Of a DNA stretch of 60,029 bases, positions 1,905 through 60,029 are shown piece after piece (within the stretch, counting starts at the first letter, position 1; every line of letters begins with the position of its first letter). Source of the DNA: a virus (taxonomy: Duplodnaviria > Caudoviricetes). The stretch lies in IMG/VR virus record IMGVR_UViG_3300036861_000473; one strand, given 5' to 3'. The notes under the pieces are model-generated. The model had not been told where the DNA came from, ran no database searches, and saw nothing but the letters and a program-made list of their open reading frames with translations. A program made the position numbers and the translations under genes.

Positions 1905-1933
1905 TTGACAGCGGTGCGACGCGCACACATGAT
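1905..1933 (+). promoter_or_regulatory. Early rightward promoter with GTGCG..CGCAC operator-like dyad
   Basis: TTGACA-N17-CATGAT; the spacer GGTGCGACGCGCAC resembles the dyad GGTGCGCG-C-CGCGCACC near 1822-1838. Confidence 0.6.
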
Positions 1934-1955
1934 GTGTACCTCATTCGGGAGCGTG

Positions 1956-2467: not shown

Positions 2468-2538
2468 AACAGCAAGCGCCGCCCTTGTCCCCGACCAAGA
2501 GATCAAAGGCGGCGCCCCAAACGAAAGGACCATAGCCG

Positions 2539-4345: not shown

Positions 4346-4358
4346 CCCGGAGGCTCCC

Positions 4359-4769
4359 ATGCCCACGTCCACGCTCATCCTTGCCCTCGTGGCGGTCGTG
4401 CTCGTGCTGGTCTGCGGCCTGGCGGCCCTGTGGGATGGCCGCCGACGATACCGCCGGCTTGTCGAGGAGCTCCGCGGCCGGCTGGACCGGCAGACCGCCG
4501 CGACCGCCCGGGCGCTGGCCGCGACGATCGCCATCCCACCGCCACCGCCGGCCGCCCAGCTCCGTCCGGGGGCCGGGCGGCGCGCCCACACGGCCATCAG
4601 CGTGCTCGACGCGGCCGACCTGCTCCTCATCACCCGCTACGTACAACAGCGCGCCGAAGCTGGAAGCGCGCTGCACGAAGCGGCCGGCCGAGTCCGAATG
4701 ATCGGGGAGACCGCCGCCGCCGACCTTGGCATCCACGTGCATCTGCGCGGACGAGGACGGACCTCGTGA
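4359..4769 (+). CDS. Membrane-anchored hypothetical protein
   Basis: N-terminal hydrophobic helix; GGAGG RBS. Confidence 0.6.
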   Translation: MPTSTLILALVAVVLVLVCGLAALWDGRRRYRRLVEELRGRLDRQTAATARALAATIAIPPPPPAAQLRPGAGRRAHTAISVLDAADLLLITRYVQQRAEAGSALHEAAGRVRMIGETAAADLGIHVHLRGRGRTS

Positions 4770-4882
4770 AAAAGGACCTGCGGGCCGCCACAGGCTGCGT
4801 GACCGGGATCGGCGTTGGCCTCTGCTTCTGGCTGCTCCTCTTCCTGGCCATCTGGCTGACCAGGGGATGGTGGGGCGGATGA
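4766..4882 (+). CDS. Small membrane protein
   Basis: Single TM helix; overlaps both neighbours by 4 nt. Confidence 0.5.
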   Translation: MKKDLRAATGCVTGIGVGLCFWLLLFLAIWLTRGWWGG

Positions 4883-5958
4883 GCGGCGTGCTGCAGGATG
4901 GCCCGTACTGGCTGTCGCCGACCAAGATCAGCATGGCGCTTGGCTGCCCGCTGCGCGCGCAGCGCCGCTACAAGCTCAAGCTGCGCGAAAAGCCAGCCCT
5001 GCCCGCCTTCCGTGGCAACCAGCTGCATGCCGCGCTTGAGGCGACCAAGGGTCGCCCTGACCTGCCCGGCGTCGCCCACCTGACCACAGAGGTCAGGGAG
5101 GCGTGGCAGTTCAACGCGCCACCACCGTGGACAGGGCTGTTCAGCCAGTGGCTCGCGCTGCATGACGACATGGCCCCACAGATGGCCGAGCTGGACTCCA
5201 TCGCCGACCGGATCAAGACCGACGCCGAAGCCGGCCGGCGCAAGGGCGGCGCCCAGGCCCCCCGCATGACCAACGACTACCGCAAGGCCGAAGCGGACCT
5301 GATCGGCCCATGGCGCGACACCATCGACTCGTTGCGTGCCGCCGAACGCGAGTTGCTGGACGACCCTGAGCGCTCCCCCTGGGAGGCCACGACCAGGAGC
5401 GGGTTCGACGAGTACCAGTCGTCGCTGGACACCGCGCACGCCTACACGGCCTGGTGGCACAACACGCCCGCCGATGATCGGCCGGAGATCCTGCACTGCG
5501 AACGCCGCTTCGAGACCCTGCTGGACCGGGGCCACTTCAAGCTCGGCGGCCGGGTCGACCGCATCGACCTCGACCCGGTCCGGGACGCGCTGGTGGTAGT
5601 CGACTACAAGACCGGGTCGGGCAACTGGAGCAAGCACGAACGGTGGATTCAGGCTGCCTGCTACGCGCTCGGCGTCACCGAGGTGATCGGCCAGCGCCCA
5701 GACCTGGTCCGCTTCATCGACCTCGACAAGGGCCCGTCGACCGACACCTACCCGGTCAAGCCGATGTGGGACATCAAGCTGCTTGACACCTGCCGGTACG
5801 CCCGCGACCTGATCGAAGGCCCCCCGGTCGCCACCTTCGGACCGTGCGGGATCTGCTCCTACACGGACTTGTGCTTTGACCTAGCCGGCAACGGCTTCCA
5901 GTTCCAGGCGCTCGAAGACCTCGAGCAGCCCGCCGCAGAAGAGGTGACCCCAGCATGA
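4879..5958 (+). CDS. PD-(D/E)XK RecB/Cas4-like exonuclease
   Basis: LSPTKI..CP, GNQLHAALE, GRVDRID, VVVDYKTG, QAACYA, CGICSY..C. Confidence 0.88.
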   Translation: MSGVLQDGPYWLSPTKISMALGCPLRAQRRYKLKLREKPALPAFRGNQLHAALEATKGRPDLPGVAHLTTEVREAWQFNAPPPWTGLFSQWLALHDDMAPQMAELDSIADRIKTDAEAGRRKGGAQAPRMTNDYRKAEADLIGPWRDTIDSLRAAERELLDDPERSPWEATTRSGFDEYQSSLDTAHAYTAWWHNTPADDRPEILHCERRFETLLDRGHFKLGGRVDRIDLDPVRDALVVVDYKTGSGNWSKHERWIQAACYALGVTEVIGQRPDLVRFIDLDKGPSTDTYPVKPMWDIKLLDTCRYARDLIEGPPVATFGPCGICSYTDLCFDLAGNGFQFQALEDLEQPAAEEVTPA

Positions 5959-16800: not shown

Positions 16801-16970
16801 TGGACGTGACCGGGTTCGCCCAGCTCCAGCCGGTCAACATCCGGAATGGCATCCCCTGCTGCCCCTGCTGCAACGAGCCGATGATCCAGGTCGGGGAGAA
16901 CGAGTGGCAGTGCGCCCTCGGCGTGGCGCTGTGGCGCTGGGTGCGGGAGCGGCTGGACGATGCCCAGTAG
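16800..16970 (+). CDS. Small Cys-containing protein
   Basis: TGATG overlap; CCPCC...WQC. Confidence 0.5.
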   Translation: MDVTGFAQLQPVNIRNGIPCCPCCNEPMIQVGENEWQCALGVALWRWVRERLDDAQ

Positions 16971-17313
16971 GCCCTGCCCCGGCCCCGCCAACGGCACCCC
17001 ACCCTGCCCTGCGGGTGCGATGGTGACGGTGCGTCGTAACGTCAAGCAGGCCGGCCGCTGCATCCTGTGCCGGGCGGAGCACAACGCCCGTCACAATGCG
17101 CGCCGGCCGGACCTGCATGATCCCGCCGAGAAGCGTCGGCGCGCGCAGGTGGTCGCCGCCGCTGGCGGCTGGTGCCAGGGCTGGCCTGGCCATCCGCGGC
17201 ATCCGAGCGCCGACCTGACCGCCCACCATGTCGACGGACCCGGCGGCGTCCGTCTCGTGGCGCTTTGCCGCTCCAAAAACAGCGCAATCGGGTCACCGAA
17301 CCGGTCACAGTAG
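16960..17313 (+). CDS. Terminase-associated HNH endonuclease
   Basis: MPSRPC start, WCQGW...DLTAHHV...LVALCRSKNS; typical of the HNH preceding cos/terS. Confidence 0.7.
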   Translation: MPSRPCPGPANGTPPCPAGAMVTVRRNVKQAGRCILCRAEHNARHNARRPDLHDPAEKRRRAQVVAAAGGWCQGWPGHPRHPSADLTAHHVDGPGGVRLVALCRSKNSAIGSPNRSQ

Positions 17314-17411
17314 ACCAAACGGACGACCAGATTGACCGGAAAGATACGATTATACCCTAATTTTGGGGTGGTTTGGGATAGTTTAGACCGATTTTCCCTG
17401 TGGAGTGTCGC

Positions 17412-17424
17412 CAAGCAAGACAAG
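17412..17424 (+). repeat. 13-bp direct repeat CAAGCAAGACAAG, left copy
   Basis: Identical to 21339-21351. Confidence 0.85.
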
Positions 17425-17470
17425 CACCACGCTCAAACGTCTGAATCCGGTCGATCCGGCTGGTGGTTGG

Positions 17471-17500
17471 TTGACATGGTGTCGGACGTTGGCCTACGGT
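17471..17500 (+). promoter_or_regulatory. Promoter with embedded operator
   Basis: TTGACA-N18-TACGGT; operator TGTCGGACGTTGGCCTACG at 17480-17498. Confidence 0.65.
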
Positions 17501-17537
17501 GGTCGGGACACTACCCGCCACGTCGGAGGCCTCCACC

Positions 17538-17816
17538 GTGACCGCCCAGACCGCCCAGACCACACCTGGTGAGCGCGAGGATTTCGGGCACGCGGAACAT
17601 GCCGCCTGTGGCTGCGAGCCGGTCGGGCAGAAACAGATAGCCGATCGGCTGGGCGTGAGCGCGAAGACTCCCAACACCTGGTACGTCCGCGGCCTACTCC
17701 CCAAGCCTTGGGGGCGGGTAGGGAACGGCCCGGCATGGTGCTGGCCCCATCAGATTGTCCCGTGGGCGAAACAGACCAGGCCGAGCCGTTGGGATCGGAG
17801 CGGCGCGAGGGCATGA
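17538..17816 (+). CDS. Small HTH regulator (MerR/AlpA/excisionase-like)
   Basis: PVGQKQIADRLGVSAKTPNTWYVRGLLPKP...PAWCW; GGAGG RBS. Confidence 0.78.
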   Translation: MTAQTAQTTPGEREDFGHAEHAACGCEPVGQKQIADRLGVSAKTPNTWYVRGLLPKPWGRVGNGPAWCWPHQIVPWAKQTRPSRWDRSGARA

Positions 17817-17881
17817 CAGCCTAGGCGCCTACGCGCCCAGCTGCTGCCGCCCTGCTGCCGCCCTGCTGGGCGCGTGCCAAA

Positions 17882-17907
17882 GGGCCCGGGCGCGCGGCCC
17901 GGGCCCC
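17882..17907. terminator. GC hairpin between convergent genes
   Basis: GGGCCCGGGC...GCCCGGGCCC. Confidence 0.5.
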
Positions 17908-17920
17908 AAGGGTGAAGCGG

Positions 17921-19063
17921 CTAGGGGATGCGAACGGGCATGATCAGGCCGCGGAAGCCGTTACCATCGGTCACCAAAGCCGGCTTGAGGCTATCCCGGA
18001 GCTGCATCGTCCCGTGGTCGACCGCGGCCAGCAGCTCACGTAGGTACAGCGGCTTGAAGCTGGTAGGGGTGAACGGCGTGTAGCCTGCCAGTTTCAGGCC
18101 TGGTAGTTCCGCCTCGACCTTGCCGATGTCCTGCCGCTTGCACGAGGCGGCGATGGTCGCGCCGCTCGCCTCGAGGATGATCGGCTCGCGTCCGAACGAT
18201 GCCACGATCGCCGCGGCGGCCGCCGCACCATCGGTGACGTCGATGGTTGGCACATCGCCCGTCATGGTCGGGATCAGCCGCTCCCAAGTGGAGGGAAACT
18301 CGCCCTCTATGGCCCGGGCCCAGAACATCGACGGCCCAACCTGCACGCGCACCTCGCCCGTGCCGTGTGTGTCGGTGCCCGTGCCATGCCACCAGGCGCC
18401 GCCCTCGGTCGCCTTGTACAGCGCGATGGCCTGCTTGACCAGGGTGAGCGCCCGGGCGGGTAGCAGGAAGCAAAACGCCGAATCGTCTAGCTGTTCGGTC
18501 TGGTAGGTGTGGAGGCGATAGGAATCGGTCGCGGTCGCGGTCAGCGTGCCCTGGTCGCGCTTGACCTGGACCGCGGTCAACACTGGGCGAGCCTCATCGC
18601 CGCTGGTCGCTGGCAGTACCCGCCGCGCCCACGTGCCAAGCAGGCCGAGGTCGGAGGTCACGCGCACCTCGCCCTCTGAGACCTCGCCGCGCAACGTCGG
18701 ATAGTCCTCGAGCGCGTTGACGTGGAGCGCCGCATGCAGGCCGCCAGCATGCATGCGCAGCAGGCCGGCTTCCTGGTCGAGCTCGAGCCGCGCGAGTGTT
18801 CCCTTTGGCTGGCGTCCCTTGAGGGTTGCGGCGAGCTCGCGCAACGGCACCACGACGGCACCAGTGTCGACCACCAGCGACGAGTCAAGCCGCGTCGTGC
18901 TGGTCAACTCAAGGTCCGTCGTGGTGATCGTGACCGGGCGGCCCCAGCCGGCCGCCTCGATCTTCACTCCGCCCAGAACGGGCAGGGTCGGACGACGCGA
19001 GCACGTGCCAGCCGCGACTTTGAGCGCGCGGACGAGCTCGGCATGGTCAACGTCGAAATGCAA
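17921..19063 (-). CDS. dnaN: DNA polymerase III beta sliding clamp homologue
   Basis: RPTLPVLGGV, TTDLE, EDYPTL, DEARPVLTAV, ATDSYRL, IEGEFP, KPAL, LIMPVRI; TTG start after AAGGGA, but may be frameshift-fused to the upstream ORF. Confidence 0.88.
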   Translation of the reverse strand: MHFDVDHAELVRALKVAAGTCSRRPTLPVLGGVKIEAAGWGRPVTITTTDLELTSTTRLDSSLVVDTGAVVVPLRELAATLKGRQPKGTLARLELDQEAGLLRMHAGGLHAALHVNALEDYPTLRGEVSEGEVRVTSDLGLLGTWARRVLPATSGDEARPVLTAVQVKRDQGTLTATATDSYRLHTYQTEQLDDSAFCFLLPARALTLVKQAIALYKATEGGAWWHGTGTDTHGTGEVRVQVGPSMFWARAIEGEFPSTWERLIPTMTGDVPTIDVTDGAAAAAAIVASFGREPIILEASGATIAASCKRQDIGKVEAELPGLKLAGYTPFTPTSFKPLYLRELLAAVDHGTMQLRDSLKPALVTDGNGFRGLIMPVRIP

Positions 19064-19169
19064 ACCGCCTGTCCCTTGGGTAGCCGGCTTCGGCGGGGTA
19101 GGTGGCGGGGTAGGCCGCGGCGGAGTAGCCGGCTGGGCAGGCTTCGGTGGCTGGGCGGGCTTCGGTGGG

Positions 19170-19535
19170 CTAGCCGGCTTGCTTGGCGCCGCGCTCGAGA
19201 TTGGCCGCTTGACCGCTGGCCGCTTGCTTGGCTGCTGCCTGCTTGGCGGCCTCGCGCTTGACCTCCGCGGCGGCCGCGTTGTAGTCGGTTTGGGACTTGC
19301 GGTAGTTGCGGCCCGTGTACCGTTTGACGTAGCGGTAGGTGACGCGGCCACCCTCGAGGCGAATCCACGCAACCCATGCTGCCGGGCGCGGTCGATAGTC
19401 GGTTTGGTAGCCGTCCGAAGCCTCACCAGACCAGAGCTCGACTTTGACTGTGCGGCCGCCAGCAATCGTGACCTCTGCACGGTCGACAAGGCTTGCCCTG
19501 GCAGGAACCGCCGTATTGTTACCATCGCGCATCAT
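19170..19535 (-). CDS. Hypothetical protein (possible N-terminal part of clamp fusion)
   Basis: AGAAGGGG RBS; MMRDGNN...AEVKREAAKQ. Confidence 0.6.
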   Translation of the reverse strand: MMRDGNNTAVPARASLVDRAEVTIAGGRTVKVELWSGEASDGYQTDYRPRPAAWVAWIRLEGGRVTYRYVKRYTGRNYRKSQTDYNAAAAEVKREAAKQAAAKQAASGQAANLERGAKQAG

Positions 19536-19713
19536 CCGCCCCTTCTGGTGGCGTTTCGTCGTCGGTCTCGTCGTCGTCGGTCCAGCAGCGGGCATGGAGG
19601 CGGCCGCCCTCAAGCCGTAGTTCCACGTGCAAGCCGGATAGGGGATCCGCCCAATGCAGAACGCCCTCCAAGCCCCGTAGCAGGGCCCAGAGGGCGAGCA
19701 GGCGACTACGCAC
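19519..19713 (-). CDS. Small protein with acidic tail
   Basis: Overlaps both neighbours; DDDETDDETPPEGADD. Confidence 0.5.
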   Translation of the reverse strand: MRSRLLALWALLRGLEGVLHWADPLSGLHVELRLEGGRLHARCWTDDDETDDETPPEGADDARW

Positions 19714-20677
19714 CTTGCACCGTTGGCGGGATCGAGGCCTCGCGGCGGCCGCGCACCTCGGGATAGGGGATTTTGTCGTTCCACGTGTAGCCGCTCGGGA
19801 CAGTGAGTGACTTCGGATTCACCCGAAGCACTGGGCGCCAACGATTCCAGCGGTCCAGCACCTCGTCGCCCTTGGCGAAATCGCCCGGGCCCCACACTTT
19901 CGCGCCGCTCGCCTGCTTGGCTGCCACCACTTGGCGCCAGTGCTCGAGCTCGTCGGCGTTCTGCTGCTGCTGGGCTTGCAGCTGCTCCGCCCATTGGCCA
20001 GTAGCCGCCTCATGGTCTTCGACGTAGGCGACCTCGCCGCGCCCGTTCCGGTACTGCCGCTGGTAGCCCTGCAGCTTCCGGGCGATGTCGCGCTGCTCCG
20101 CCTCCAGCCGCTCAATCCGCCGCAACGTCGTGCCGAGAGACTCGCGCCGCTGCTTGTACCGCTCCGATGTCGCGGCCGCCTGCTGGTAGTGGCTCGCCTT
20201 GCCGTCTTCCTCGATCGAGCGGCGGATAGCGTTGTCGGCCCGCTTCAAAGCGGCCCGATGGCCACGCTCGGAGTGATGGCCGATCAGGATCGGCTGACCA
20301 GGCGGGATCGGCTCGAGGATGTCATGGAAGCGCTGGAATGCGGCCGCGGCCGCAGACTCCGCCCGTTCGGCCCGATCGGCGTAGGTGTCCGCGCGCTGTT
20401 CCGCCCGGGCCTCCCGTTCCGCCTCCGCCTCCGCGAACGCTCGAGGTGTCTCGTCAATCGACACCTCGACCTGGAAGCCTGCCGCGCGCAGCTGCTTGGC
20501 GGCCTGGTCGATGCGCCAGGTCTTCGCGGCCCGATCCCTGGACTGTTGGATGATCCATGCGCGGATACCGGGCGCCCAGCGGAAACCGGCCGTCTTGAGG
20601 ATCGGCGCCGAACCATCGCCGCGGGCAGTGCCCTCGACAATGGTTCCCTCCGGGCGAGTATGGGTGATGGTGATCAT
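19706..20677 (-). CDS. DUF3560-like protein
   Basis: MITITHTRPEGTIVEGTARGDG...IPPGQPILIGHHSERGHR...RRIERLEAE...VLRVNPKSLTV. Confidence 0.82.
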   Translation of the reverse strand: MITITHTRPEGTIVEGTARGDGSAPILKTAGFRWAPGIRAWIIQQSRDRAAKTWRIDQAAKQLRAAGFQVEVSIDETPRAFAEAEAEREARAEQRADTYADRAERAESAAAAAFQRFHDILEPIPPGQPILIGHHSERGHRAALKRADNAIRRSIEEDGKASHYQQAAATSERYKQRRESLGTTLRRIERLEAEQRDIARKLQGYQRQYRNGRGEVAYVEDHEAATGQWAEQLQAQQQQNADELEHWRQVVAAKQASGAKVWGPGDFAKGDEVLDRWNRWRPVLRVNPKSLTVPSGYTWNDKIPYPEVRGRREASIPPTVQGA

Positions 20678-36670: not shown

Positions 36671-38383
36671 ATGCCCGTCCGCGGCTACTACGGCAAGCTC
36701 CGCAAGCGGTATCAGGCCGAAGCTACCGCTGTCCGGAATCAGCGTCGCATGCGGGCGCTGGACCCGGGCATTCTCCCGGTCCCCCTGCAGGTCGCGGGGT
36801 TGCGGCTGTGGCTGGCCGCCGACCTGATCAGTGGCCTGTCCGGCGGTGCCGCCGTGGCGACTTGGGCGGATGCGAGCGGCCGCGCAAACGACGCGACGCA
36901 GGGGACCGGCGCCAACCAGCCCACCTACCAGACCGCCGTCATCAATGGCCTGCCGGTCGTCCGGTTCGACGGCAGCAACGACTGCCTGCTCCTAGCCACC
37001 AGCGACCTGCTCGCCGCGACCAACGCGATCGGTGCGATCAGCTTTTTCGCGGTCGCCAAGCTGAGCGCGACCGCCGCGACCACCAACGACTACCTGTCGA
37101 TCTCCACCGGCACCGCCGCCAACTCGGCCCGCCTCAAGGCGGGGCAGCGCGCCCCCGCCGGGTCGGGGGTGTGGGGGATGACCGCCCGCCGCCTCGACGC
37201 CGACGCGGCCGCCAACATCGAAGATGCAAACGACGACACCGCCTGGCATGTCCATTCGGCGATCATGGACTACGTCAACGGCGACGGGTTCCTCAACCTC
37301 GACGGGACGCAGATCGGGTCGAACCTGGCGCTGACCAGCTCGGGGACGACGTCGGCGACCAACGCGCTCGCCGCTGCGGTCGGTGGCCGCGCGGATGGGC
37401 TCGGGGAGTTCTGGGCTGGCGACATCGCCGAGCTGATCATGTACGTCGGCGCTGCCAAGATCGCCGACGCGGACCGGGACCTGGTCACCAACTACCTGCT
37501 CACCAAGTACGCCATCACCGGTGGTGGTCAGGCCAGCTCCGGCGCGGCATCCGGCGAGCAGCGCACCGCCGGCACCAGTGTGGGCGTCAAGGGCGCCGCC
37601 GGCGCCACGGCCAGCGCGCAGCGGGTGTCGGGGCTGTCGACCGGCAGCAAGGGCGCCGGCGGCGCCACGCAAGGGCAGGCCCGGACCGCAGGGCTGGTCG
37701 CGGGCCGCAAGCAAGCCGCCGGGGCGACGGTCGGGGAGCAGCGCACCACCGGGCTCGCGGTCCGTGGCGCGCCGTTCGCCACCGGAGCGACCAGTGGCCA
37801 GCAACGCGTCACCGGCCAGAGCGCCGGGACCAAAGGCGCCGCTGGCGCGCAGAGCGGCCAGCAGCGCACCGCCGGGCTGGTCGCGGTCCGCAAGCAGGCC
37901 CTGGCAGGCACCAGCGGCGCCCAGCGCAGCGTCGGTACAGCGTCGGCGCGCAAGCAGGCGCTCGGCGCGACCGTCGGGGAGCAGCGCACCACCGGGCTGG
38001 CCACGACCGCCCCACCGCCACCGTCGGCCGGGACGGTCGGGCAGCAGCGGGTCACCGGCCTGTCGACGGGCCGCAAGGGCGCCATCAGCACCCAGAGCGG
38101 CCAGCAGCGCACGACCGGCGCGACCGCGGGGATCCACCGCGCCGTCGGTGCCACCAGCGGCCAGCAGAGGATAGGCGCCACCACCGCCGGGGCGAAGGGC
38201 GGCCGGGGTGCGACGGTCGGGCAGCAGCGGACCGCAGGCACAGCAGGAATGGGGCTGCCGGTCGTCCCCGGCCACGGCACCATCACGCTCGGCCCGCCCG
38301 CCGGCGCCGGCGGTGTCGCCCTCCAGCCGGCCAGCGGCAGCGTCGCGTTGGAGCCTGCCAGCGGAAAGGTGACCATCGGATGA
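36671..38383 (+). CDS. LamG/concanavalin-like head plus about 12 x 20-aa repeat stalk (fibre)
   Basis: LRLWLAAD...VATWADASG...NGLPVVRFDG...GDIAELIMY...NYLLTKY, then GAxxGQQRxxG repeats. Confidence 0.75.
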   Translation: MPVRGYYGKLRKRYQAEATAVRNQRRMRALDPGILPVPLQVAGLRLWLAADLISGLSGGAAVATWADASGRANDATQGTGANQPTYQTAVINGLPVVRFDGSNDCLLLATSDLLAATNAIGAISFFAVAKLSATAATTNDYLSISTGTAANSARLKAGQRAPAGSGVWGMTARRLDADAAANIEDANDDTAWHVHSAIMDYVNGDGFLNLDGTQIGSNLALTSSGTTSATNALAAAVGGRADGLGEFWAGDIAELIMYVGAAKIADADRDLVTNYLLTKYAITGGGQASSGAASGEQRTAGTSVGVKGAAGATASAQRVSGLSTGSKGAGGATQGQARTAGLVAGRKQAAGATVGEQRTTGLAVRGAPFATGATSGQQRVTGQSAGTKGAAGAQSGQQRTAGLVAVRKQALAGTSGAQRSVGTASARKQALGATVGEQRTTGLATTAPPPPSAGTVGQQRVTGLSTGRKGAISTQSGQQRTTGATAGIHRAVGATSGQQRIGATTAGAKGGRGATVGQQRTAGTAGMGLPVVPGHGTITLGPPAGAGGVALQPASGSVALEPASGKVTIG

Positions 38384-50821: not shown

Positions 50822-51688
50822 ATGGCCCTCCTCGACTTCGCCGGCAGCCCACACGGCGGTGACCACTGGCTCCTCCCCGAGTGGAACACCCAAGGCAAGA
50901 TCACCCCGACCGCGATCATCGACCACTCCCAGGTCGGCTCCACCCTCGGCACCTACTGGTTCTTCCACGACTCCACAGGGGTCGAATCGCACTTCTCGGT
51001 CCGCGGGATCCGGTCCGGCGCCCAGGACGGCCAGATCATCCAGTTCATGGACACCGCCCGTCGCGCCGACGCGAACCTGGCCGCCAACGACGAGGCCATC
51101 TCGATCGAAACCGAGGATGGGGAGCTGGTCAACGGCACCTGGGTGCACGACCCGAACGTCCAGCCGTGGACCCGCGCGCAACTGGAAAGCCTCCGCTGGC
51201 TCCACGACAAGCTCGTCGAAGTGCACCCGACCATCCCACGGCGCACGGCCACCACCCCGTGGGACTCGCCGCGGGGACTGGGCTACCACAGCCTGCCGGG
51301 GATCAACACGTTCGCCCACCCGGACATCAACCCGTGGACGCCGGCGCTTGGCAAGACGTGTCCCGGGTCGGTTCGGATCAGCCAGTGGGGCTTGATCTTG
51401 CTGCCCGCGTTCCTGCACCCAGAGGAGGAGATCGACTTGACCAAGCAGGAGTTCAAGGAAGCGTGGAACGAGCTGACCGCGCAGGGAATCATCTACGGTC
51501 AGGACAACTGGGCGGACGCCTTTCGGGTGTATGCCGACAAGGGGGACAAGCTCATCGCGGCAGTGAAGGACACCAACCTCAAGCTGCAGGCGACGCTGGA
51601 CGCGCAGGCGGCCACCAACGCCAAGCTCGACCAGCTCATCTGGCTGCTCACCCCGGCGGCCCCGGCGGCCCCGCCGCCAACACCATGA
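50822..51688 (+). CDS. Endolysin, N-acetylmuramoyl-L-alanine amidase
   Basis: IIDHS, ESHFSV, AISIETE, LGYH, KTCPG. Confidence 0.9.
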   Translation: MALLDFAGSPHGGDHWLLPEWNTQGKITPTAIIDHSQVGSTLGTYWFFHDSTGVESHFSVRGIRSGAQDGQIIQFMDTARRADANLAANDEAISIETEDGELVNGTWVHDPNVQPWTRAQLESLRWLHDKLVEVHPTIPRRTATTPWDSPRGLGYHSLPGINTFAHPDINPWTPALGKTCPGSVRISQWGLILLPAFLHPEEEIDLTKQEFKEAWNELTAQGIIYGQDNWADAFRVYADKGDKLIAAVKDTNLKLQATLDAQAATNAKLDQLIWLLTPAAPAAPPPTP

Positions 51689-51776: not shown

Positions 51777-52070
51777 GTGACCACCACCTACGACCTCGGC
51801 AGCGGCCACCAAGCCCGTCTCTACCGCACGACGACCGCCGAGTGGCCGATCGGCGCGGTCGACCTGCACCAGGCGCCGGACGGGTCGCCGTGCGGATGCA
51901 GCCTGCCGTTTGCCGATAGCCCCGTGGCGTGGCGCACCCAGGCGGACGGGTCGGTGCATCCCGGCTGGCAGGTCATCTCCCACGACCCCCTCACCCTGGC
52001 ACCGTCGGTCGTGTGCCCGCGCTGTGGCGCGCACGGCTTCATCATCGACGGAAGGTGGCGATCAGCATGA
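51777..52070 (+). CDS. DUF6527-like protein, paralogue 1
   Basis: DLGSGH...WQVISHDPLTLAPSVVCPRCGAHGFIIDGRW. Confidence 0.75.
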   Translation: MTTTYDLGSGHQARLYRTTTAEWPIGAVDLHQAPDGSPCGCSLPFADSPVAWRTQADGSVHPGWQVISHDPLTLAPSVVCPRCGAHGFIIDGRWRSA

Positions 52071-52417
52071 CCCAGGCGCATCCGCCCGGGGTCGATGTGA
52101 CGACGCGGCTCACCTACGGGGATGTGCGCTGCCAGTGCGTCCGCTGGCACCGCCCGGTCCCGGCTGAGGAGGAGAGCCACCACATCATCCCGGTCGGTGC
52201 ACCGTTCCACGGCCCCGCCAACGGCGACCAGGTGCTGCTCTGCCCGACCTCCCACAGTGCCGTCCACGCCTGCTTGCGCGTGCATCTCAAGGCCCGCACG
52301 CAGGACCGGAAACCGACCAAGGCCGAGCTCCGGCCCTACACCCGCTACGTCCGGAAGCTGGCCCAGGTCGCCATGGACGCGCTCGGCCCGCAGGCCGACA
52401 TCCCGCTGGACCCGTGA
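52067..52417 (+). CDS. HNH-like protein
   Basis: CQC...HHIIP...GP...VLLCPTSHSAVH. Confidence 0.7.
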   Translation: MTQAHPPGVDVTTRLTYGDVRCQCVRWHRPVPAEEESHHIIPVGAPFHGPANGDQVLLCPTSHSAVHACLRVHLKARTQDRKPTKAELRPYTRYVRKLAQVAMDALGPQADIPLDP

Positions 52418-52728
52418 GCGCCCCGCTCGACCTCGGCCACGACCACACGCTCCGCTACACGAGCTGGGCGCCGGACCGGGAGCTCAACCCGCAGTATGCC
52501 GACCTCCCCGACGTGGAGCGGATCGGCGCGATCATCGCCCACCGCCGCCCGGACGGTTCGCTGTGCGAGGGCGCGATCTTCTTCGACGGCGACACTGCGC
52601 GGCGGGTGCTGCCAGACAAGCCGCGGTGGACGGTCGAGTCATGGGAACCGCTCACCCTGAGTCCGTCGCTGCTGTGCCACTGCGGCGACCACGGGTTCAT
52701 CCGGGAGGACCGATGGGTGCCAGCGTGA
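52414..52728 (+). CDS. DUF6527-like protein, paralogue 2
   Basis: DLGHDH...WTVESWEPLTLSPSLLCHCGDHGFIREDRWVPA. Confidence 0.78.
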   Translation: MSAPLDLGHDHTLRYTSWAPDRELNPQYADLPDVERIGAIIAHRRPDGSLCEGAIFFDGDTARRVLPDKPRWTVESWEPLTLSPSLLCHCGDHGFIREDRWVPA

Positions 52729-53000
52729 CATATCCCGAGGGCGAGCCCGGCGTGGTCGACCTCGGCGAGCGGCACTTCGCAATGGCCCTCATCACCAACG
52801 ACGCGGTCGTCGGCTATCTGTGGTGGCATGACTGCACGACGGAACCCAAGGGCTGGTCGTGGCTCGGGCAGTGGGGCGACCGTCGCTCAGGCCACCAGAT
52901 CGTGGACACAGACCCGGTCCACATCGAGCCATCCATCCTGTGCCCGCAAGGCTGCGGCGACCATGGCTTCGTCCGCGAGGGCCGCTGGGTCCCCGCCTGA
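52725..53000 (+). CDS. DUF6527-like protein, paralogue 3
   Basis: DLGERH...DPVHIEPSILCPQGCGDHGFVREGRWVPA. Confidence 0.75.
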   Translation: MTYPEGEPGVVDLGERHFAMALITNDAVVGYLWWHDCTTEPKGWSWLGQWGDRRSGHQIVDTDPVHIEPSILCPQGCGDHGFVREGRWVPA

Positions 53001-53788: not shown

Positions 53789-53863
53789 CGGCCCGTAGGG
53801 CAGGCTGGCCAGCCCGCTGGGTTCATAACCCAGAGGTCGAGGGTTCAAATCCCTCCGGGCCCA
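53789..53863 (+). tRNA. tRNA-Met(CAT), initiator type
   Basis: Cloverleaf: C1xC72 mismatch, GGCCCG/CGGGCC, D stem GGGC/GCCC, anticodon stem CTGGG/CCCAG with loop TTCATAA, T arm GAGGG-TTCAAAT-CCCTC; no encoded CCA. Confidence 0.88.
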
Positions 53864-53876
53864 CGACAACCAAATA

Positions 53877-53911
53877 GAGGAAGCGCCCCGGTCCCCACCG
53901 GGGCGCTTCTC
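53877..53911. terminator. Hairpin between tRNA and convergent operon
   Basis: GAAGCGCCCCGGT-CCCC-ACCGGGGCGCTTC. Confidence 0.7.
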
Positions 53912-53947: not shown

Positions 53948-54145
53948 TCATGGTGTGCCTTCGGGGAGGTCGAACTCGCTGGCTTTCACCCCTGCCACGA
54001 ACGAGGCCCACTCCGCCGTGGTGAAGGCCAGGCGGGGCCCGCAGGGGTCTTTCGAGTCGCGCATGAGGACCACTGGCGGTTCGATGGCGACCTCCACGCA
54101 GCCGTTGCTGGCACTCCGCGAACTCTTCCGCCACTTCTCGGTCAT
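53948..54145 (-). CDS. DUF397 domain protein
   Basis: WRKSSRS..NGCVEVA...RDSKDP.GPRLAFTTAEWASFVAGVK. Confidence 0.92.
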   Translation of the reverse strand: MTEKWRKSSRSASNGCVEVAIEPPVVLMRDSKDPCGPRLAFTTAEWASFVAGVKASEFDLPEGTP

Positions 54146-54203
54146 GACCGGCCCTCGGTCGGGCTGATTCACCGGGTGCCTCTCCCCCATCGCTCTCCCC
54201 CAT

Positions 54204-54938
54204 CTACCTGCGGTGGTTCCCGTTGGTCGAGATCCCCCGTTCGGACTTCACCTCGGCGAGGGCTTTGGACGCCCATGAACGGTCCATGGTGATGCCCTCT
54301 GCCTTCAATTCTTTCATGACGCTCGAGTCGGTCGTCCTGGCGAGTGCCGTGTCCGACTTGAGACGGAGTTTCGCACGCGCAAACTCCGCAACCGACAGGT
54401 GTCCTGTTTGGCCGGCTTGCGGAGACGTCGGCCTGCGGATCTGCGCGGCCAACCGCCCCGGCACCTCACGAACCGGCGGAATCTCACCCGGGTCGAAGCC
54501 CATCAGGTGCGAGGTCCACCGGCAGATCGCCACAAGCACGTTGAACGCGAGAATCATCAGCACCGGGGGAAGCGCCGCGATCAGCATTCCCACCTTGTCA
54601 CTGCCGGCATGCAGGATGTTGATCCAGATGCTACCAACCGCACAGATCGTCATGATCGTCAGCGGCCCGAACGGGTAGCGGCTGATCTTGCGCGGATCCG
54701 GCGCCAATGGCCGCAACGCCACCGCGACGATCGCGGCGAATTCGGCGATCAGAAACCCGGCGTCCAGGATGAGCGGATAGACCTTGGCGGCCTTGGCGGA
54801 ATAGTGCCCGTGCGCGAGCACAAGATGGTAGGCGGCGTCGTAGCTCAATGCGACCGCCACGGCCGCAAGGCCGGCGGTGAGCACGGCCGCGCTGATGATG
54901 CCGACCTTGGCCAGCGGCGGGAAGTCGATCCACTGCAT
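54204..54938 (-). CDS. DUF2637-like / SpdA-like membrane protein with C-terminal HTH-like region
   Basis: ALSYDA...YPLILDA...SIWINILHA...IAALPPV; four TM helices. Confidence 0.75.
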   Translation of the reverse strand: MQWIDFPPLAKVGIISAAVLTAGLAAVAVALSYDAAYHLVLAHGHYSAKAAKVYPLILDAGFLIAEFAAIVAVALRPLAPDPRKISRYPFGPLTIMTICAVGSIWINILHAGSDKVGMLIAALPPVLMILAFNVLVAICRWTSHLMGFDPGEIPPVREVPGRLAAQIRRPTSPQAGQTGHLSVAEFARAKLRLKSDTALARTTDSSVMKELKAEGITMDRSWASKALAEVKSERGISTNGNHRR

Positions 54939-54943
54939 TCTGG

Positions 54944-55432
54944 CTACCTCCTTCTGGTCGTGGTGGTGGGCGGGCTGGTGGTGGGGGAGTGCTGCTTGAC
55001 CCAGGCGTTGGCCTGGTCGCGCAGATGGGTGAGCCAGGTCTGGATGGGACGGGTGAGGTCGGCAAGGTCGAGTGCCTGTGCCGGCGCGGGCGCGGCGGCG
55101 GCCGGCTTCGGTTTGGCGTCGGCCGGCTGTTGGGGGTGCGGCTGCGCGACGGTCAGCGTCACCACCGTGGCGATAATGACCACCAAGGCATATTCGGAGA
55201 GGGCGCGCAGGAGCGCACGCAACCCGCCGTTGGCGTGGTAGCTGCCGAGGATCGTCACGACCAGCCAGCCCAGCCCGATCACCAGCCAGCCGCCAAGCGT
55301 GCGGGTCAGCCCGATCGCCCCGCCGGCGGCGGCCAGGGCCAACACGAGGATGGCGTGGCGGAGCAGCCGCCGATGGCTGGCCTTTTCGGGGAACAGGGGA
55401 GTGGTGTTGATCTGGGATTGGCGGGTGGCCAT
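54944..55432 (-). CDS. Multi-pass membrane protein (Spd-like)
   Basis: Three hydrophobic segments; GGAGG RBS. Confidence 0.65.
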   Translation of the reverse strand: MATRQSQINTTPLFPEKASHRRLLRHAILVLALAAAGGAIGLTRTLGGWLVIGLGWLVVTILGSYHANGGLRALLRALSEYALVVIIATVVTLTVAQPHPQQPADAKPKPAAAAPAPAQALDLADLTRPIQTWLTHLRDQANAWVKQHSPTTSPPTTTTRRR

Positions 55433-55530
55433 CAGGACCTCCAACGGGGGAGCAGAACCCGCAGTGCCTGGCCGATGGCGAGGCCGATGGCGACAGCTGC
55501 GGCGAGATCGAGCGGGCTGAACCGGGTCAC
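55432..55530 (-). CDS. Small membrane peptide
   Basis: AGGAGG RBS; coupled on both sides. Confidence 0.55.
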   Translation of the reverse strand: MTRFSPLDLAAAVAIGLAIGQALRVLLPRWRS

Positions 55531-56084
55531 GGGTGCCTCCTCTGGTAGGAGCGGGCAAAGCCCAGGACCTGGCGGACGTACCACCAGGCGTGGTTGTAGG
55601 CGTAGATCGCTTGGCTGATGTTGCGTGGGGCGCCGTTGGCGCACAGCAGCCGCGCCGCCGCAGGGATCGCGTCGGCGGGGTCGTACACGTTGCCGCCCCG
55701 GCCGTAGGCATCCCACGTCGAGGGCGGACCGTTGCGGATGTTGAACTGCATCGGCCCCGAGCAGCAGCCGAACCGGTTGACCCCGGAGACGACGCCCGGA
55801 GCACGCGAGCGCCCATGGTTGGTTTCGACCTTCCCGATGCCGGCCAGCACCGCCCAGGACAGGCCCGGGCAGGCGTGGGCGCCCCGCTGGTACAGCACCA
55901 GGTAGGCCGGCGGGATGTCCGCCCGGCCGGTCGAGCTCGCCGCCGCCGGCGTCGGCGCTGGCGGGGGAGTGCGACGGTGGTGGGGTGTGGCGGCTTCCGC
56001 GGCAGGCTTGGCGCCCACCGCCAGCAGCACCAGGAACAGCATCAGCCACGGCCCCTCACCGCGGTGGTCGTCGCGGCGGCCCAT
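55527..56084 (-). CDS. Secreted lytic transglycosylase (SLT family)
   Basis: IPPAYL..Y...LSWAVLAGIGKVETNHG...GPMQF...TW...DPADAIPAAARLL...AIYAYNH...YV. Confidence 0.88.
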   Translation of the reverse strand: MGRRDDHRGEGPWLMLFLVLLAVGAKPAAEAATPHHRRTPPPAPTPAAASSTGRADIPPAYLVLYQRGAHACPGLSWAVLAGIGKVETNHGRSRAPGVVSGVNRFGCCSGPMQFNIRNGPPSTWDAYGRGGNVYDPADAIPAAARLLCANGAPRNISQAIYAYNHAWWYVRQVLGFARSYQRRHP

Positions 56085-56293
56085 CAGGCCACCTCACGCC
56101 ACCGCGGTGGCGGCTCCAGCTGCTCTCCCCGGCAGTCCGCGCACAGCCACCGGTCGCCGACCGGCCACAGCCGCCCCTCACCCAAGCATCCGTCGCACGG
56201 CTGCTCCAACAGGGACTGGCACCACGCCTCGACCTGGGCGTCCAGCGTGGGCCTGGCCGCGCGTGGCGGCAGGGTGGGACGATGCAGCGGCAT
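56084..56293 (-). CDS. Small zinc-ribbon protein
   Basis: CDGC...WLCADC; GGAGGT RBS; TGATG coupling. Confidence 0.6.
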   Translation of the reverse strand: MPLHRPTLPPRAARPTLDAQVEAWCQSLLEQPCDGCLGEGRLWPVGDRWLCADCRGEQLEPPPRWREVA

Positions 56294-56314
56294 TGGAGCG
56301 CAACCTCCGATGCG

Positions 56315-56352
56315 AAAGAAGCCCGGGCGGGAGATGGCACCTCCCGCCCGGG
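56315..56352 (-). terminator. Terminator/attenuator in the leader of the leftward operon
   Basis: CCCGGGCGGGAG-N7-CTCCCGCCCGGG followed by CTTCTTT on the minus strand. Confidence 0.6.
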
Positions 56353-56453
56353 TCGGTTTTGGAACGGGTTGCGGCGCACCCGCCTCGGATGCGCCCGCTA
56401 TGCAGTTGTCCGCAGAAGCATCGCGTGAGCTCTGCGCCGCCCCTCACCGGCGC

Positions 56454-56543
56454 GTCTAGGGCCTACTAGATTTCGCGGGTCAGAATACGATCTCCCCACG
56501 CTCGCGTCCAGTGCCCTCTAGACAAACCGGGTATGCTGTGCGC
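56454..56543. promoter_or_regulatory. Divergent promoters with two 18-bp operators
   Basis: GTCTAG-N6-CTAGAT (56454-56471) and GTCCAG-N6-CTAGAC (56506-56523); leftward TGGACG-N17-TATTCT; rightward TATGCT 6 nt before ATG. Confidence 0.68.
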
Positions 56544-56858
56544 ATGCCCAACCATGACCAGGTCGCCAGGCAGATCGCCGAAGCGCTGGAGGGACTCCAG
56601 GGCGCATTCCAAGCGGTCGAGCAGGTCACCGACCCGCAACAGGCGTTCGAGTTGGCCACCGAGCTCGTCGATGATCTCGGCCGGCTGGAAGGACAGGCCG
56701 CTGATCTGCGTGCCCGCCAGGTTGGCAGGATCTGGGCGAGCGAGACGATGACCCTGGAAGTGCTGGCGCAGCGGATCAGCGTCCGCAAGGCCCGCGCCGG
56801 CCAGCTCAAGCAGCGCGCGCTGGAGCTGGCCAACCGCCCGGAAGGAGAGCAGCCATGA
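56544..56858 (+). CDS. Putative HTH repressor (Kor-like), leaderless
   Basis: MTLEVLAQRISVRKARAGQL at C-terminus; adjacent to operators. Confidence 0.68.
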   Translation: MPNHDQVARQIAEALEGLQGAFQAVEQVTDPQQAFELATELVDDLGRLEGQAADLRARQVGRIWASETMTLEVLAQRISVRKARAGQLKQRALELANRPEGEQP

Positions 56859-57478
56859 CGGAGCACATCGGTCCCTGGCATGAGGTGCCCAACCCGAACG
56901 GGTGGGTGGACCCGGAAGCGGCCGACCTTCCGATCGGCGATGACGAGCCGGCAGGCGTGCTCGGTGAGGTGTGGCCGCTCACCATCGACCCGACCATCCC
57001 CGCCGAACAGGCGGGGATCTGGCTGTGTAGCGGCACGCTGCCGTGGACGACGCCATTCAAGAAGCAGGGTGTGCGGCTGCACGACCTGATCGTCCGGGAG
57101 CTTACCCGCCGGGACATCCCCGTCCGCCCCACCACGCCGCTGCACCAGACCTCCGATCGGGACATTGGCATCGGCGTGGTACACACCTACATGGCGGTCA
57201 TTCCCTGCGACGGGCCGGTCCGGGCCCGCTGGCCGCTCGCGCTGCCGGTCTCCACCCAGCTCGCCGCGATGGTCGGCCCGCCCCCCACCCATGCCTCCGG
57301 GGAGCGCCCACAACCGCGGGACTGGGATGTCCTGATCCATGGCCTCGGCCACCTGCACCGGCTCTACAACACCAACGCCACCTTCCGCCGCGACTTGGCG
57401 CCAGCGTTCGCATTCCATCTGGGGGAGTGGGAGGAGACGCTGTTCCAGCAGTTCGAGCGGGTCCACGGCACGACGTGA
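56855..57478 (+). CDS. Hypothetical protein, possibly degenerate Nudix-like fold
   Basis: LHQTSDR...HTYMAV...DVLIHGLGHL; ATGA-coupled to repressor. Confidence 0.55.
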   Translation: MTEHIGPWHEVPNPNGWVDPEAADLPIGDDEPAGVLGEVWPLTIDPTIPAEQAGIWLCSGTLPWTTPFKKQGVRLHDLIVRELTRRDIPVRPTTPLHQTSDRDIGIGVVHTYMAVIPCDGPVRARWPLALPVSTQLAAMVGPPPTHASGERPQPRDWDVLIHGLGHLHRLYNTNATFRRDLAPAFAFHLGEWEETLFQQFERVHGTT

Positions 57479-57503: not shown

Positions 57504-57971
57504 ATGAGCGACCCGGCGCCGCTGCCCGCCGGCCCGGTCGACCGGGAGTGGGCGGAGCTCGCCCTCAACGTCTGCCAGTCCGCCTGGGAGCACGACCTGG
57601 CCGGCTGCGGCGACGAGCTGTCCCGCAGGGTCCTACGGGTGACGCTGGCCGCGCTGCGCCGCTACGAGCTGCGCACCGGCCAGCAGCGGCTCACCCACCC
57701 CTCGCTCGTCCGGCGCACCCCAGACGGTCGCCTGCCCGATCCTGGCATGGCCGTGCTGTGCGCCAGCTGCGACCAGCCACGCCAGGCGCATGGTGGCCGC
57801 CGGCATCTTGGCGCCTGCCCAGGACATGAGGGCCTGCATGCGCAACGATTCAGCCGGGTGGCCGTGGCTGCGCACTCTGAAGCGGTATCGGACCCCGGCA
57901 GCCCTGGGGACCACAACCCGACCGTCGACCCGAGTGTCACCGACCACCCGCCGCTACATCCTAGAATCTAG
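57504..57971 (+). CDS. Hypothetical protein
   Basis: CASC..PRQAH...C motif. Confidence 0.55.
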   Translation: MSDPAPLPAGPVDREWAELALNVCQSAWEHDLAGCGDELSRRVLRVTLAALRRYELRTGQQRLTHPSLVRRTPDGRLPDPGMAVLCASCDQPRQAHGGRRHLGACPGHEGLHAQRFSRVAVAAHSEAVSDPGSPGDHNPTVDPSVTDHPPLHPRI

Positions 57972-57991: not shown

Positions 57992-58201
57992 ATGTCGCGT
58001 CCCGCGTTATGGCTGCTGCTCCTGATGGGCCTGTGCTTCTGGGTACTCGCCGCGCTCGTCCTGCCAGGCATCCTGCAGGTCGTCATGCTTGGTCGCGGCA
58101 AGGTGGTTTGGCTGGAGCTCTGCATCACCGTCGCCTACGGGATGTGGGGATGCGCGGCCTTCTGGGTCGCCATCCGACGGCTGGCCCGGGGGAGCCGCTA
58201 G
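57992..58201 (+). CDS. Small two-TM membrane protein
   Basis: AGGAGG RBS; TAGAAT upstream. Confidence 0.65.
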   Translation: MSRPALWLLLLMGLCFWVLAALVLPGILQVVMLGRGKVVWLELCITVAYGMWGCAAFWVAIRRLARGSR

Positions 58202-58746: not shown

Positions 58747-58774
58747 GGTTTACATAATGTTTATTATGGGGGAG
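58747..58774 (-). other. dif-like Xer recombination site (candidate attP or resolution site)
   Basis: Minus strand CTCCCCCATAA-TAAACA-TTATGTAAACC, 11-6-11 architecture with CATAA/TTATG core. Confidence 0.72.
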
Positions 58775-59213
58775 ATGCGAGAGTGGTCTCGGCCGGCTTG
58801 AATCGACCCCCGCAGCCTGCATGCGGCGTCCCCTCGATCTGTGGGCACAGCGGGATCGTACGGTGGCCGCAGCGGTCGCAGACGAACTCGCGGTCATGCA
58901 TCTGCTCCGGCCACACTGGCACGGACTCTATGGGCGAAACACTGCCGTCCGCCTCGTAGCCCCAAGGGCTGTCATCATGCCGGTCCATATGGCAGTGAAA
59001 GCAGAGCGTGACCAGATCCTCCAACAGCTCCCTGCCGAGCCGAACATAGGTGATGTGGTGCACCTCGAGCCTATCGGCGCGGTGACACTCGGTGCACTGG
59101 TGCCCATCCCGCTCAAGCGCCAGGGCACGTTTTGCCTGCCACTCGGGGCTTTCCAGATATTCCTGGTAGCGCCAAGGCGGCAACCCAAGTTCGCCCAGCA
59201 GCTGCTCGCTCAT
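58764..59213 (-). CDS. HNH endonuclease
   Basis: YLESPEW..KR...RDGHQCTEC...LEVHHITY...DLVTLCFHCH. Confidence 0.88.
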   Translation of the reverse strand: MSEQLLGELGLPPWRYQEYLESPEWQAKRALALERDGHQCTECHRADRLEVHHITYVRLGRELLEDLVTLCFHCHMDRHDDSPWGYEADGSVSPIESVPVWPEQMHDREFVCDRCGHRTIPLCPQIEGTPHAGCGGRFKPAETTLASPP

Positions 59214-59509
59214 GGCTTGCTCTCCCCCGCCGGGGGAGTCGGCTCGCCCCAGCCCGTTTCGGGGTCGCCGACCAGCAGTCGGTACTGCTCGTTGCCTCCA
59301 GCGCCTTCGATCTCCTCCAGGGTGACGGGCACGGCCCGAGCCACCTCCTCGAAGTGGCCGGCGTGCTCGCCGAACACGGTCACCGCCCAGGTTTCGCCGC
59401 CATGCCGGTTGGGGCGGCCTTCCAGCCAATTGGCGTAGGCAGCAGTGTTGATCCACATGCGCATGCGCGCCTCGTCGGGCGCGGTGACCAGGAAGTAGCG
59501 GACGCTCAT
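59210..59509 (-). CDS. Hypothetical protein
   Basis: ATGA-coupled; GGGGAG RBS. Confidence 0.6.
   Translation of the reverse strand: MSVRYFLVTAPDEARMRMWINTAAYANWLEGRPNRHGGETWAVTVFGEHAGHFEEVARAVPVTLEEIEGAGGNEQYRLLVGDPETGWGEPTPPAGESKP
59222..59238. repeat. 17-bp palindrome copy 2
   Basis: CTCCCCCGCCGGGGGAG. Confidence 0.75.
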
Positions 59510-59898: not shown

Positions 59899-60029
59899 CT
59901 AGCATGCCGGGCGAGGGCTGTCGCCTGGGATGTCCCGCGGGTCGGGAACGCGCTCCAACCAGCGGCCGACCTGCAACGTGTATCCCTTGGCGTAACGGCG
60001 GGTCGTGTTCGCCGATGCGTGGCCGAGGA
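59899..60029 (-). CDS. int: C-terminal end of the tyrosine recombinase (includes terminal overlap)
   Basis: LGHASANTTRRYAKGY...PRPAC then TAG at 59901-59899. Confidence 0.85.
   Translation of the reverse strand, partial: LGHASANTTRRYAKGYTLQVGRWLERVPDPRDIPGDSPRPAC
59903..60029. repeat. 127-bp terminal overlap
   Basis: Identical to 1-127. Confidence 0.95.

Follow-up and report, generated by a model that had tools for sequence, protein, structure and literature searches.

TraB-type conjugation, the form found in Streptomyces, is the least understood route of bacterial DNA transfer, and its Spd proteins are nearly without recognisable relatives. In pSVH1 (TraR, TraB and the operon spdB3-spd79-spdB2) and in pIJ101 (SpdA/SpdB/KilB), the Spd genes encode small hydrophobic proteins beside TraB and divergent from a repressor. 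SpdB2 of pSVH1 has four transmembrane (TM) helices, binds double-stranded DNA and peptidoglycan, and forms pores; SpdB2-like genes also occur on the actinophages phiC31 and VWB, and the authors suggest that they might help in the spread of phage DNA (PMC4447253). On pSAM2, the Nudix protein Pif acts with the repressor KorSA to give conjugal immunity (PMC2440964, PMC3218068), and this immunity requires the Nudix motif (PMC2440964). Here, we compare with these systems a gene cassette at positions 53948-57478 of IMG/VR record IMGVR_UViG_3300036861_000473, a stretch of 60,029 nt (the window, meaning all of the DNA analysed) that is the complete circular genome of a temperate siphophage from soil.

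The cassette has two arms and sits between the lysis genes and the integrase. All of its open reading frames (ORFs) are present and rich in G and C at third codon positions (GC3). Its features and their immediate neighbours are as follows.

53880-53909, minus strand: terminator-like hairpin of 13 pairs, just 3' of the DUF397 gene (pattern scan, consensus match)
53948-54190, minus strand: DUF397 protein, 80 aa from the first ATG (PF04149, E 8.1e-22, 77.6 bits against a cut-off of 24)
54204-54938, minus strand: DUF2637 protein, 244 aa (PF10935)
54944-55444, minus strand: protein with three TM segments (3-TM protein, "TM166 family"), 166 aa (TM prediction)
55527-56084, minus strand: lytic transglycosylase (LT) of SLT type, 185 aa (motifs, Pfam scores of orthologues)
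56084-56293, minus strand: zinc-ribbon-like protein with two CxxC pairs, 69 aa (ORF and sequence, GC3 0.87)
56322-56352, minus strand: GC-rich hairpin of 12-14 pairs, 29 nt upstream of the start codon that opens the leftward operon (scan)
56455-56470 and 56507-56522, no strand assigned: two 16-bp palindromes TCYAG-N6-CTRGA, upstream of the HTH gene
56538-56858, plus strand: small helical protein with a C-terminal helix-turn-helix (HTH)-like motif, 106 aa, alternative upstream GTG at 56511
56855-57478, plus strand: Nudix-fold protein without Nudix box, 207 aa, overlapping the HTH gene by 4 nt (translationally coupled)
57504-57971, plus strand: protein of no family, 155 aa, downstream of the Nudix-fold gene
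57992-58201, plus strand: membrane protein with two TM segments and no family, 69 aa, last gene of the rightward arm

The zinc-ribbon gene is the first of the leftward operon and its stop overlaps the LT start, and the hairpin at 53880-53909 is probably the end of this operon. A sequence-only reading of the window had described a leftward operon (zinc ribbon, LT, membrane proteins, DUF2637, DUF397) divergent from an HTH gene and a gene coupled to it. The ORFs bear this layout out, but two membrane proteins had been counted besides the DUF2637 protein and only one, the 3-TM protein at 54944-55444, lies between LT and DUF2637. We propose that the cassette is a functional two-armed unit shared with TraB-type integrative conjugative elements of uncultured soil Actinomycetota, similar to the integrative and conjugative elements of actinomycetes (AICEs), and that it serves in DNA spread in the manner set out below. 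We hold this proposal with about even confidence.

We analyzed the recurrence of the cassette among related loci (numbered L001 onwards). The gene order LT-TM166-DUF2637, hereafter the triad, was kept in 10 distinct loci, with identity as low as about 40%: the window, L001, L004, L007, L010, L011, L012, L014 (the same contig as L005), L015 and L024. A TM166-family member lay between LT and DUF2637 in each of these, and another was found in L013 (local jackhmmer), where the triad families are also present but more divergent. L001 belongs to a second IMG/VR phage (G004) of 43.7 kb with direct terminal repeats and 100% completeness. Its LT (65% identity), TM166-family protein and DUF2637 protein (81%) are encoded between lysis genes and a serine integrase, as in the window, and the two phages are otherwise dissimilar across the 16 kb compared. 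Profile-guided scans of 2.9 million viral contigs yielded no IMG/VR record with the cassette beyond these two.

Small integrative elements hold other copies. Next after the triad come a DnaB_N/DUF3987 helicase and an integrase in L007 and L012, the helicase and then the contig end in L014, and no more than a DUF3987 fragment in L004. No virion genes were found in the visible stretch of L004, L007, L012 or L014. L024 has both arms, and so do L025 and L026 as far as LT, where these short contigs stop.

The closest connection with conjugation was found in L013. In this locus, an HTH (34% identity) and Nudix-fold (38%) gene pair is divergent from an operon that encodes DUF2637, small TM proteins including the TM166-family member, NlpC/P60, LT (51%), and a protein combining FtsK_SpoIIIE with a winged HTH. 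The last protein shares 32% identity with pIJ101 Tra over 224 aa (E 3e-17). On these matches L013 has both arms and is an element of the TraB type, so that the phage cassette has counterparts in conjugative elements of this type. In L017, too, LT and a TraB-like gene share a strand.

We then surveyed the class of the metagenome-assembled genome (MAG) G171, in which the phage contig is binned; it comprises 22 genomes in the set surveyed. There were 57 DUF2637 matches (E<=1e-5) in 19 of these genomes. Nine of the 57 were within 5 kb of a family LT on the same contig (one being the phage contig itself) and one shared its contig with a PF01580 match; because many contigs are short, both counts are lower bounds. 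In another group, covered by a search at class level around G001, DUF2637 was found in 2 of 151 genomes.

The ratio of nonsynonymous to synonymous substitution rates (dN/dS) was 0.17-0.40 in all nine informative pairwise comparisons (DUF2637, 0.31; LT, 0.24-0.39; HTH, 0.29-0.40; Nudix-fold, 0.17-0.28). A tenth comparison, of the 3-TM protein with that of L012, gave 1.12 at 39% identity, which is saturated and uninterpretable. Judged by these ratios, the cassette is under purifying selection. Its recurrence in multiple loci, the dN/dS values and the intact ORFs speak against a one-off decaying fragment.

The phages lack the motor of the TraB elements. FtsK/SpoIIIE (PF01580) gave 0 matches at E<=1 in the complete window genome (G000) and in the second phage, with controls matched; for the window, this agrees with the sequence-only reading, in which no FtsK/TraB ATPase was recognised. 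The TraB-like protein of L013, used as a tblastn query, also had no match in either phage. Overall, no TraB was visible in the window, L001, L004, L007, L010, L011 or L014. In L012, what remains of a TraB-like motor domain is its C-terminal part (16946-18142; 38% identity to residues 422-520 of the L013 protein), immediately behind the DnaB/DUF3987 helicase; either TraB has decayed here or the assembly is broken. Ghinet et al. (2011) characterize AICEs by Int, Rep and Tra (PMC3218068). The window encodes an integrase (PF00589, E 1.6e-21), equally a feature of phages, and because the defining Tra protein is absent we class it as a phage and not as an AICE. Likewise, a position beside traB and co-transcription with it, which mark Spd genes, are absent from the phage and found only in its relative L013.

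LT, with one N-terminal hydrophobic segment, is predicted to be membrane-anchored or secreted. SLT domains are defined by a catalytic Glu in E-S/T, together with GxMQ and AYNxG-like motifs. The motifs GKVE[T/S], GPM[Q/P] and AYNH were conserved in 4/4 aligned sequences, and the Glu of GKVE, which we take to be the catalytic residue, was invariant. The orthologues of L007 and L005 (46-48% identity) exceed the Pfam SLT (PF01464) cut-off with 31.3 and 24.6 bits. When LT was searched against plasmids, 183 records matched, and the best listed were LT or LT/NlpC-P60 genes with 52-59% identity. At the two plasmid loci inspected (Embleya, Streptosporangium), these genes lie beside genes of type IV secretion systems (T4SS), namely VirD4-like (type IV coupling protein), VirB4-like and PrgI-family genes. 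The phage protein resembles, at this identity, the N-terminal LT domain of actinobacterial LT/NlpC-P60 hydrolases, whose function is of the VirB1/TcpG/PrgK type. However, it has no domain besides the LT domain and its N-terminal anchor, and the system around it is of TraB type rather than T4SS. L010 and L013 have a separate NlpC/P60 gene immediately before LT. By these relationships LT is classed as a conjugation-type wall hydrolase. Neither LT nor DUF2637 matched any of 50,697 deposited phage records (tblastn), and the LT profile had no match among PDB sequences.

The DUF2637 protein scored 28.7 bits against PF10935 (cut-off 22.8, E 1.4e-6; 27.7 bits in a six-frame search) and matched phrog_733 (E 8.6e-11). 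It has four hydrophobic (TM) segments, the same number as SpdB2, and a conserved cytoplasmic tail of about 105 aa. We found 12 relatives among 5.8 billion proteins and no tblastn match in 72,556 plasmids. For the 3-TM protein there was no Pfam family and no Atlas match above the 0.9 bar. Compared with the Spd systems, the cassette has an additional, dedicated LT, its candidate repressor has no GntR match in Pfam, and the phage has no TraB. It shares with the SpdB2-like genes of phiC31 and VWB the presence of plasmid-spread-like membrane proteins on temperate actinophages, but no LT or Nudix-fold partner is described for those genes (PMC4447253).

Two small genes frame the left arm. The DUF397 protein also matched phrog_10815 (E 5.5e-20). 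It is an orphan, as its partner PF19054 (DUF5753) was unmatched in the phage genome at E<=1; we assume DUF397 and XRE/DUF5753 to be partner families of WhiJ/BldB type. The gene was not found in the related loci (tblastn). Beside its operon, at 3698-5320, L001 has instead an XRE/DUF5753 gene and DUF6879. The zinc-ribbon protein had weak Pfam hints (DnaJ_CXXCXGXG, E 0.026) and one weak match in L013; in L024 and L025, LT follows directly after the hairpin. NCBIfam and PADLOC gave no useful matches for the cassette proteins.

In the right arm, the HTH protein had no family match in the libraries scanned. Its alignment contains a conserved L..LA.R..V.K.RA stretch, and its gene adjoins the Nudix-fold gene in L013, L021, L024, L025 and L026. 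An exhaustive HMMER search for the Nudix-fold protein returned 229 representatives at E<=0.001, against 7 relatives from a word-based search. The AlphaFold2 model built on an 85-row alignment has a mean predicted local distance difference test score (pLDDT) of 87.4 and a predicted TM-score (pTM) of 0.81; it supersedes a poor 7-sequence model (pLDDT 53.7). The top Foldseek rows were Nudix proteins with weak E-values (best 1.3e-3). VIA-align gave Z 10.2 (root-mean-square deviation 3.3, 124 residues) for the MutT/Nudix protein 3i9x, and Z 9.7, 9.5 and 8.7 for AraR, NrtR and NadQ, at 9-12% sequence identity. Of the 50 listed entries, 49 are Nudix or Nudix-related by title or are Nudix-domain proteins. 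The possible Nudix-like fold suggested for this gene is thus supported by the model and the fold search.

The Nudix box is GX5EX7REUXEEXGU. In strict, relaxed or core (REUxEE) form, it occurred in 0/85 family members, and Pfam NUDIX matched 0/85 of these aligned sequences at E<=0.01; the family profile had only chance-level matches among PDB sequences. The protein is therefore unlikely to be a classical Nudix hydrolase. On its model, it is nearer to the ligand-sensing, Nudix-related regulators than to Pif. NrtR, AraR and NadQ, among the best structural matches, use a Nudix fold with degenerate catalytic box as a ligand sensor. However, they fuse a winged HTH C-terminally, whereas here the HTH candidate has a gene of its own, lying upstream. 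At its end the model has three short helices, and the alignments extend to chain residue 174-185 of AraR/NrtR. A complex prediction for the Nudix-fold and HTH proteins scored 0.00 and carries no weight either way. The 155-aa protein encoded downstream has, over residues 11-66, 43% identity to sequences directly after the Nudix-fold gene in L021, L022, L023 and L025 (tblastn).

The arm recalls KorSA-Pif of pSAM2, in which a regulator gene is followed by a Nudix gene near the transfer genes of an integrative element (PMC2440964). The likeness is one of fold and position; Pif immunity depends on the motif that this family lacks. A Streptomyces integrative conjugative element gene that fuses HTH and Nudix domains has also been noted (PMC9513070). 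The LT/NlpC-P60/DUF2637 element of L010 has as neighbours, at 1777-3551, one gene for an HD-domain phosphohydrolase and one for an XRE-type HTH protein, and these recall the mdp-nud-xre cluster on several AICEs (PMC2440964, PMC3218068).

The divergent spacer between the arms is 244 nt long. In the hairpin at 56322-56352, the stem GGGCGGG/CCCGCCC is kept in 4/4 aligned loci, with variation in the loop and the inner pairs; the hairpin is a candidate leader structure or palindromic operator. The palindrome TCYAG-N6-CTRGA has just 2 matches in the 60,029 nt (0.09 expected; 0/100 shuffles reach 2). There are two copies each in L024 and L025, and one in L021, which is cut. Because the pattern was derived from the same sequences, its recurrence in relatives is partly circular; its genome-wide uniqueness is not. 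The palindromes are candidate operators for the HTH protein.

The genome around the cassette is that of a phage. Its first 127 nt are an exact direct repeat of 59903-60029, which gives a circle of 59,902 nt (about 59.9 kb), and the IMG/VR record class is direct terminal repeats with completeness 100%. The repeat and the record class indicate a complete circular-assembling genome rather than a piece of chromosome. This one genome encodes a large terminase (phrog_19179, E 9.9e-64), a portal (PF04860, E 8.7e-49), matched tape-measure families and the integrase, as expected of a temperate tailed phage, and also a DnaB helicase, a PD-(D/E)XK nuclease and a clamp. The sequence-only reading spoke of a prophage; the record is a free circular phage genome. 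The features flanking the cassette and the integration genes are as follows.

1373 down to 1, with the stop at 59899, across the junction: tyrosine integrase (the PF00589 match given above)
1929-2198, divergent from the integrase: XRE-type regulator (profile match)
50822-51688: amidase endolysin (profile match)
53789-53864, plus strand: tRNA-Met (CAT), left neighbour of the cassette (ARAGORN)

The integrase ORF appears truncated at both linear ends, since it is split by the junction. A nested element at tRNA-Met was considered and rejected, as there is no second copy of the tRNA-Met 3' end in the genome. The phage contig is also binned in MAG G171 (contig C311, locus L016; 60,043 nt, 100% identity across the 4 kb compared). 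This makes an uncultured soil actinobacterium (Actinomycetota) the probable host, with binning being weak evidence. The cassette stretch was found in four soil metagenome runs, two of which are possibly the source.

From the observed gene content, folds, synteny, recurrence, selection and absence of TraB, we infer the following activities and roles. The left arm would build an envelope complex in which the anchored LT opens peptidoglycan locally, and the 3-TM and 4-TM DUF2637 proteins form the membrane part. The DUF2637 tail may bind DNA. The arm would then be a functional analogue of the Spd/SpdB2 spread apparatus. We read it as an envelope-breaching complex for DNA traffic, rather than for lysis or defence, because its LT is of the conjugation type and TraB is in the same operon in L013. 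The right arm would be the control unit. Its HTH protein probably binds both palindromes of the divergent promoter region, and the Nudix-fold partner, having no catalytic box, is probably a ligand sensor or immunity factor in a KorSA/Pif-like position. As the phage has no motor of its own, its genome would most likely pass between neighbouring cells or compartments by a translocase supplied in trans, either a resident TraB or the host FtsK. The cassette may also tune such DNA traffic. Three roles come into question: the cassette could spread the phage's own DNA by a motor supplied in trans, let the phage ride on resident elements, or exclude elements that arrive.

Several results weigh against this proposal. 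The LT of the phage scores 12.5 bits against Pfam SLT, below the cut-off of 21.3. The structural neighbours of the DUF2637 tail (Atlas) are HTH-like and weak, all with TM-score below 0.5. L001 has no Nudix-fold gene and no HTH-Nudix arm, so the two arms are separable, and as neighbour of the left arm the HTH/Nudix-fold arm has at least one alternative. The cassette persists in elements without visible TraB, and its function therefore cannot depend on TraB in cis. All four runs listed with the cassette stretch are DNA, with 0 RNA runs among them. The term "intramycelial spread" may not apply to the uncultured host group, depending on its growth form.

The relation to Spd proteins also counts against it. 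Aligned with pIJ101 SpdB, the sole Spd reference, the DUF2637 alignment gave an hhalign probability of 0.2% over 11 columns; pIJ101 SpdA, SpdB and KilB themselves have no Pfam family. PF10935 was unmatched in phiC31 and pIJ101, as well as in two large T4SS plasmids. The SpdB2-like gene of phiC31 is therefore of another family than the DUF2637 protein, and without sequence similarity to pIJ101 SpdB, "Spd-like" denotes an analogy and not membership. The label "SpdA-like" of the sequence-only reading is unsupported; the DUF2637 similarity itself stands. In sum, the earlier observation is confirmed and its interpretation is partly supported.

Other explanations of the cassette were weighed against DNA spread. 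It might serve exclusion or immunity, with membrane and Nudix-fold proteins made from the prophage to keep conjugative elements or other phages from entering or establishing themselves, by entry exclusion together with Pif-like conjugal immunity, and not to move the phage's DNA. Its place between lysis genes and integrase is typical of accessory genes expressed in lysogeny, it survives without TraB in several elements, and Pif with KorSA provides a known case of conjugal immunity from a Nudix protein (PMC2440964, PMC3218068). However, the motif on which that immunity depends (PMC2440964) is found in none of the 85 family members, and no PADLOC defence family was matched at a meaningful level. 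A peptidoglycan cutter (with NlpC/P60 in addition in L010 and L013) fits channel building better than blocking, and the genes of L013 share an operon with TraB. We regard exclusion as unlikely, but as deserving some weight. Lytic transglycosylases are common in phages, and the amidase endolysin gene is about 2 kb away, so that LT and the membrane proteins could be an extra endolysin and holin-like proteins for crossing or dissolving the wall. Against such an accessory to infection or lysis, which we consider improbable, the cassette runs on the strand opposite the late genes, with a divergent regulator and a terminator of its own; its LT and DUF2637 proteins lack counterparts in the deposited phage records, and most copies are in elements whose visible stretch has no virion genes.

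The cassette could also be a captured remnant or passenger without phage function, including a small integrative element nested at tRNA-Met. The missing TraB, the decay of such elements exemplified by the TraB-like fragment of L012, the presence in only 2 IMG/VR viral records and a superficially island-like tRNA-cassette-integrase layout would agree with this. However, the ORFs are all intact with dN/dS well below one, the control region is conserved, and a second complete but otherwise dissimilar phage keeps the triad at the same place. As there is no second integrase among the ORFs scanned, the single one serves the phage. Capture without function is in our view very improbable. A bolder version of the spread proposal makes the LT/3-TM/DUF2637 triad a self-sufficient minimal device by which naked double-stranded DNA would cross from one actinobacterial cell or compartment to the next, whether or not an FtsK-type motor of the host takes part, and with the Nudix-fold sensor controlling when the gate opens; it is a long shot.

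Some further observations concern other parts of the window. At 52055-52417, after the endolysin, a 120-aa His-rich protein (HHI.P.G....LLCP.SH..VH) has a syntenic counterpart with 79% identity in the phage L001; it has no family match and could be a small HNH-like nuclease. Three small paralogues (51777-52070, 52414-52728, 52713-53000) have in common a C-terminal CG(A/D)HGF..(D/E)GRW motif and a 49-nt repeat at their 3' ends, and two of them match DUF6527 and phrog_15183 weakly. Within the ORF at 36671-38383, repeats of about 60 nt (20 aa) occur in 8 copies with 63-84% identity (37550-38244), and the 570-aa tail-region product is probably a repetitive fibre-like protein. A sliding clamp (phrog_947, E 7.5e-43) and a DUF3560 gene are located on the minus strand (17921-20677) amid the rightward early region. 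Finally, an HNH endonuclease ORF (58764-59456, PF01844) overlaps a GC3-rich ORF in another frame (59210-59509).

Transfer- or spread-type genes on phages were known before. What appears new is a cassette of families without functional description in the literature searched: mentions of DUF2637 were not functional, and searches on AICEs, prophages and TraB yielded no such phage cassette among the matches listed. The work gives a first context for DUF2637 and for the box-less Nudix family. LT, the 3-TM family, the DUF2637 subfamily and the Nudix-fold family (229 representatives, no Pfam name) form a portable set of four families that moves among TraB elements, TraB-less integrative elements and tailed phages, and it shows that phages and conjugative elements exchange modules within an actinobacterial class that is uncultured. 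The 2015 idea of phages borrowing plasmid spread machinery thereby gains a concrete, testable gene set. If the triad did act as a self-sufficient device, it would be a capsid- and TraB-independent route of spread for temperate phages and for small TraB-less integrative elements.

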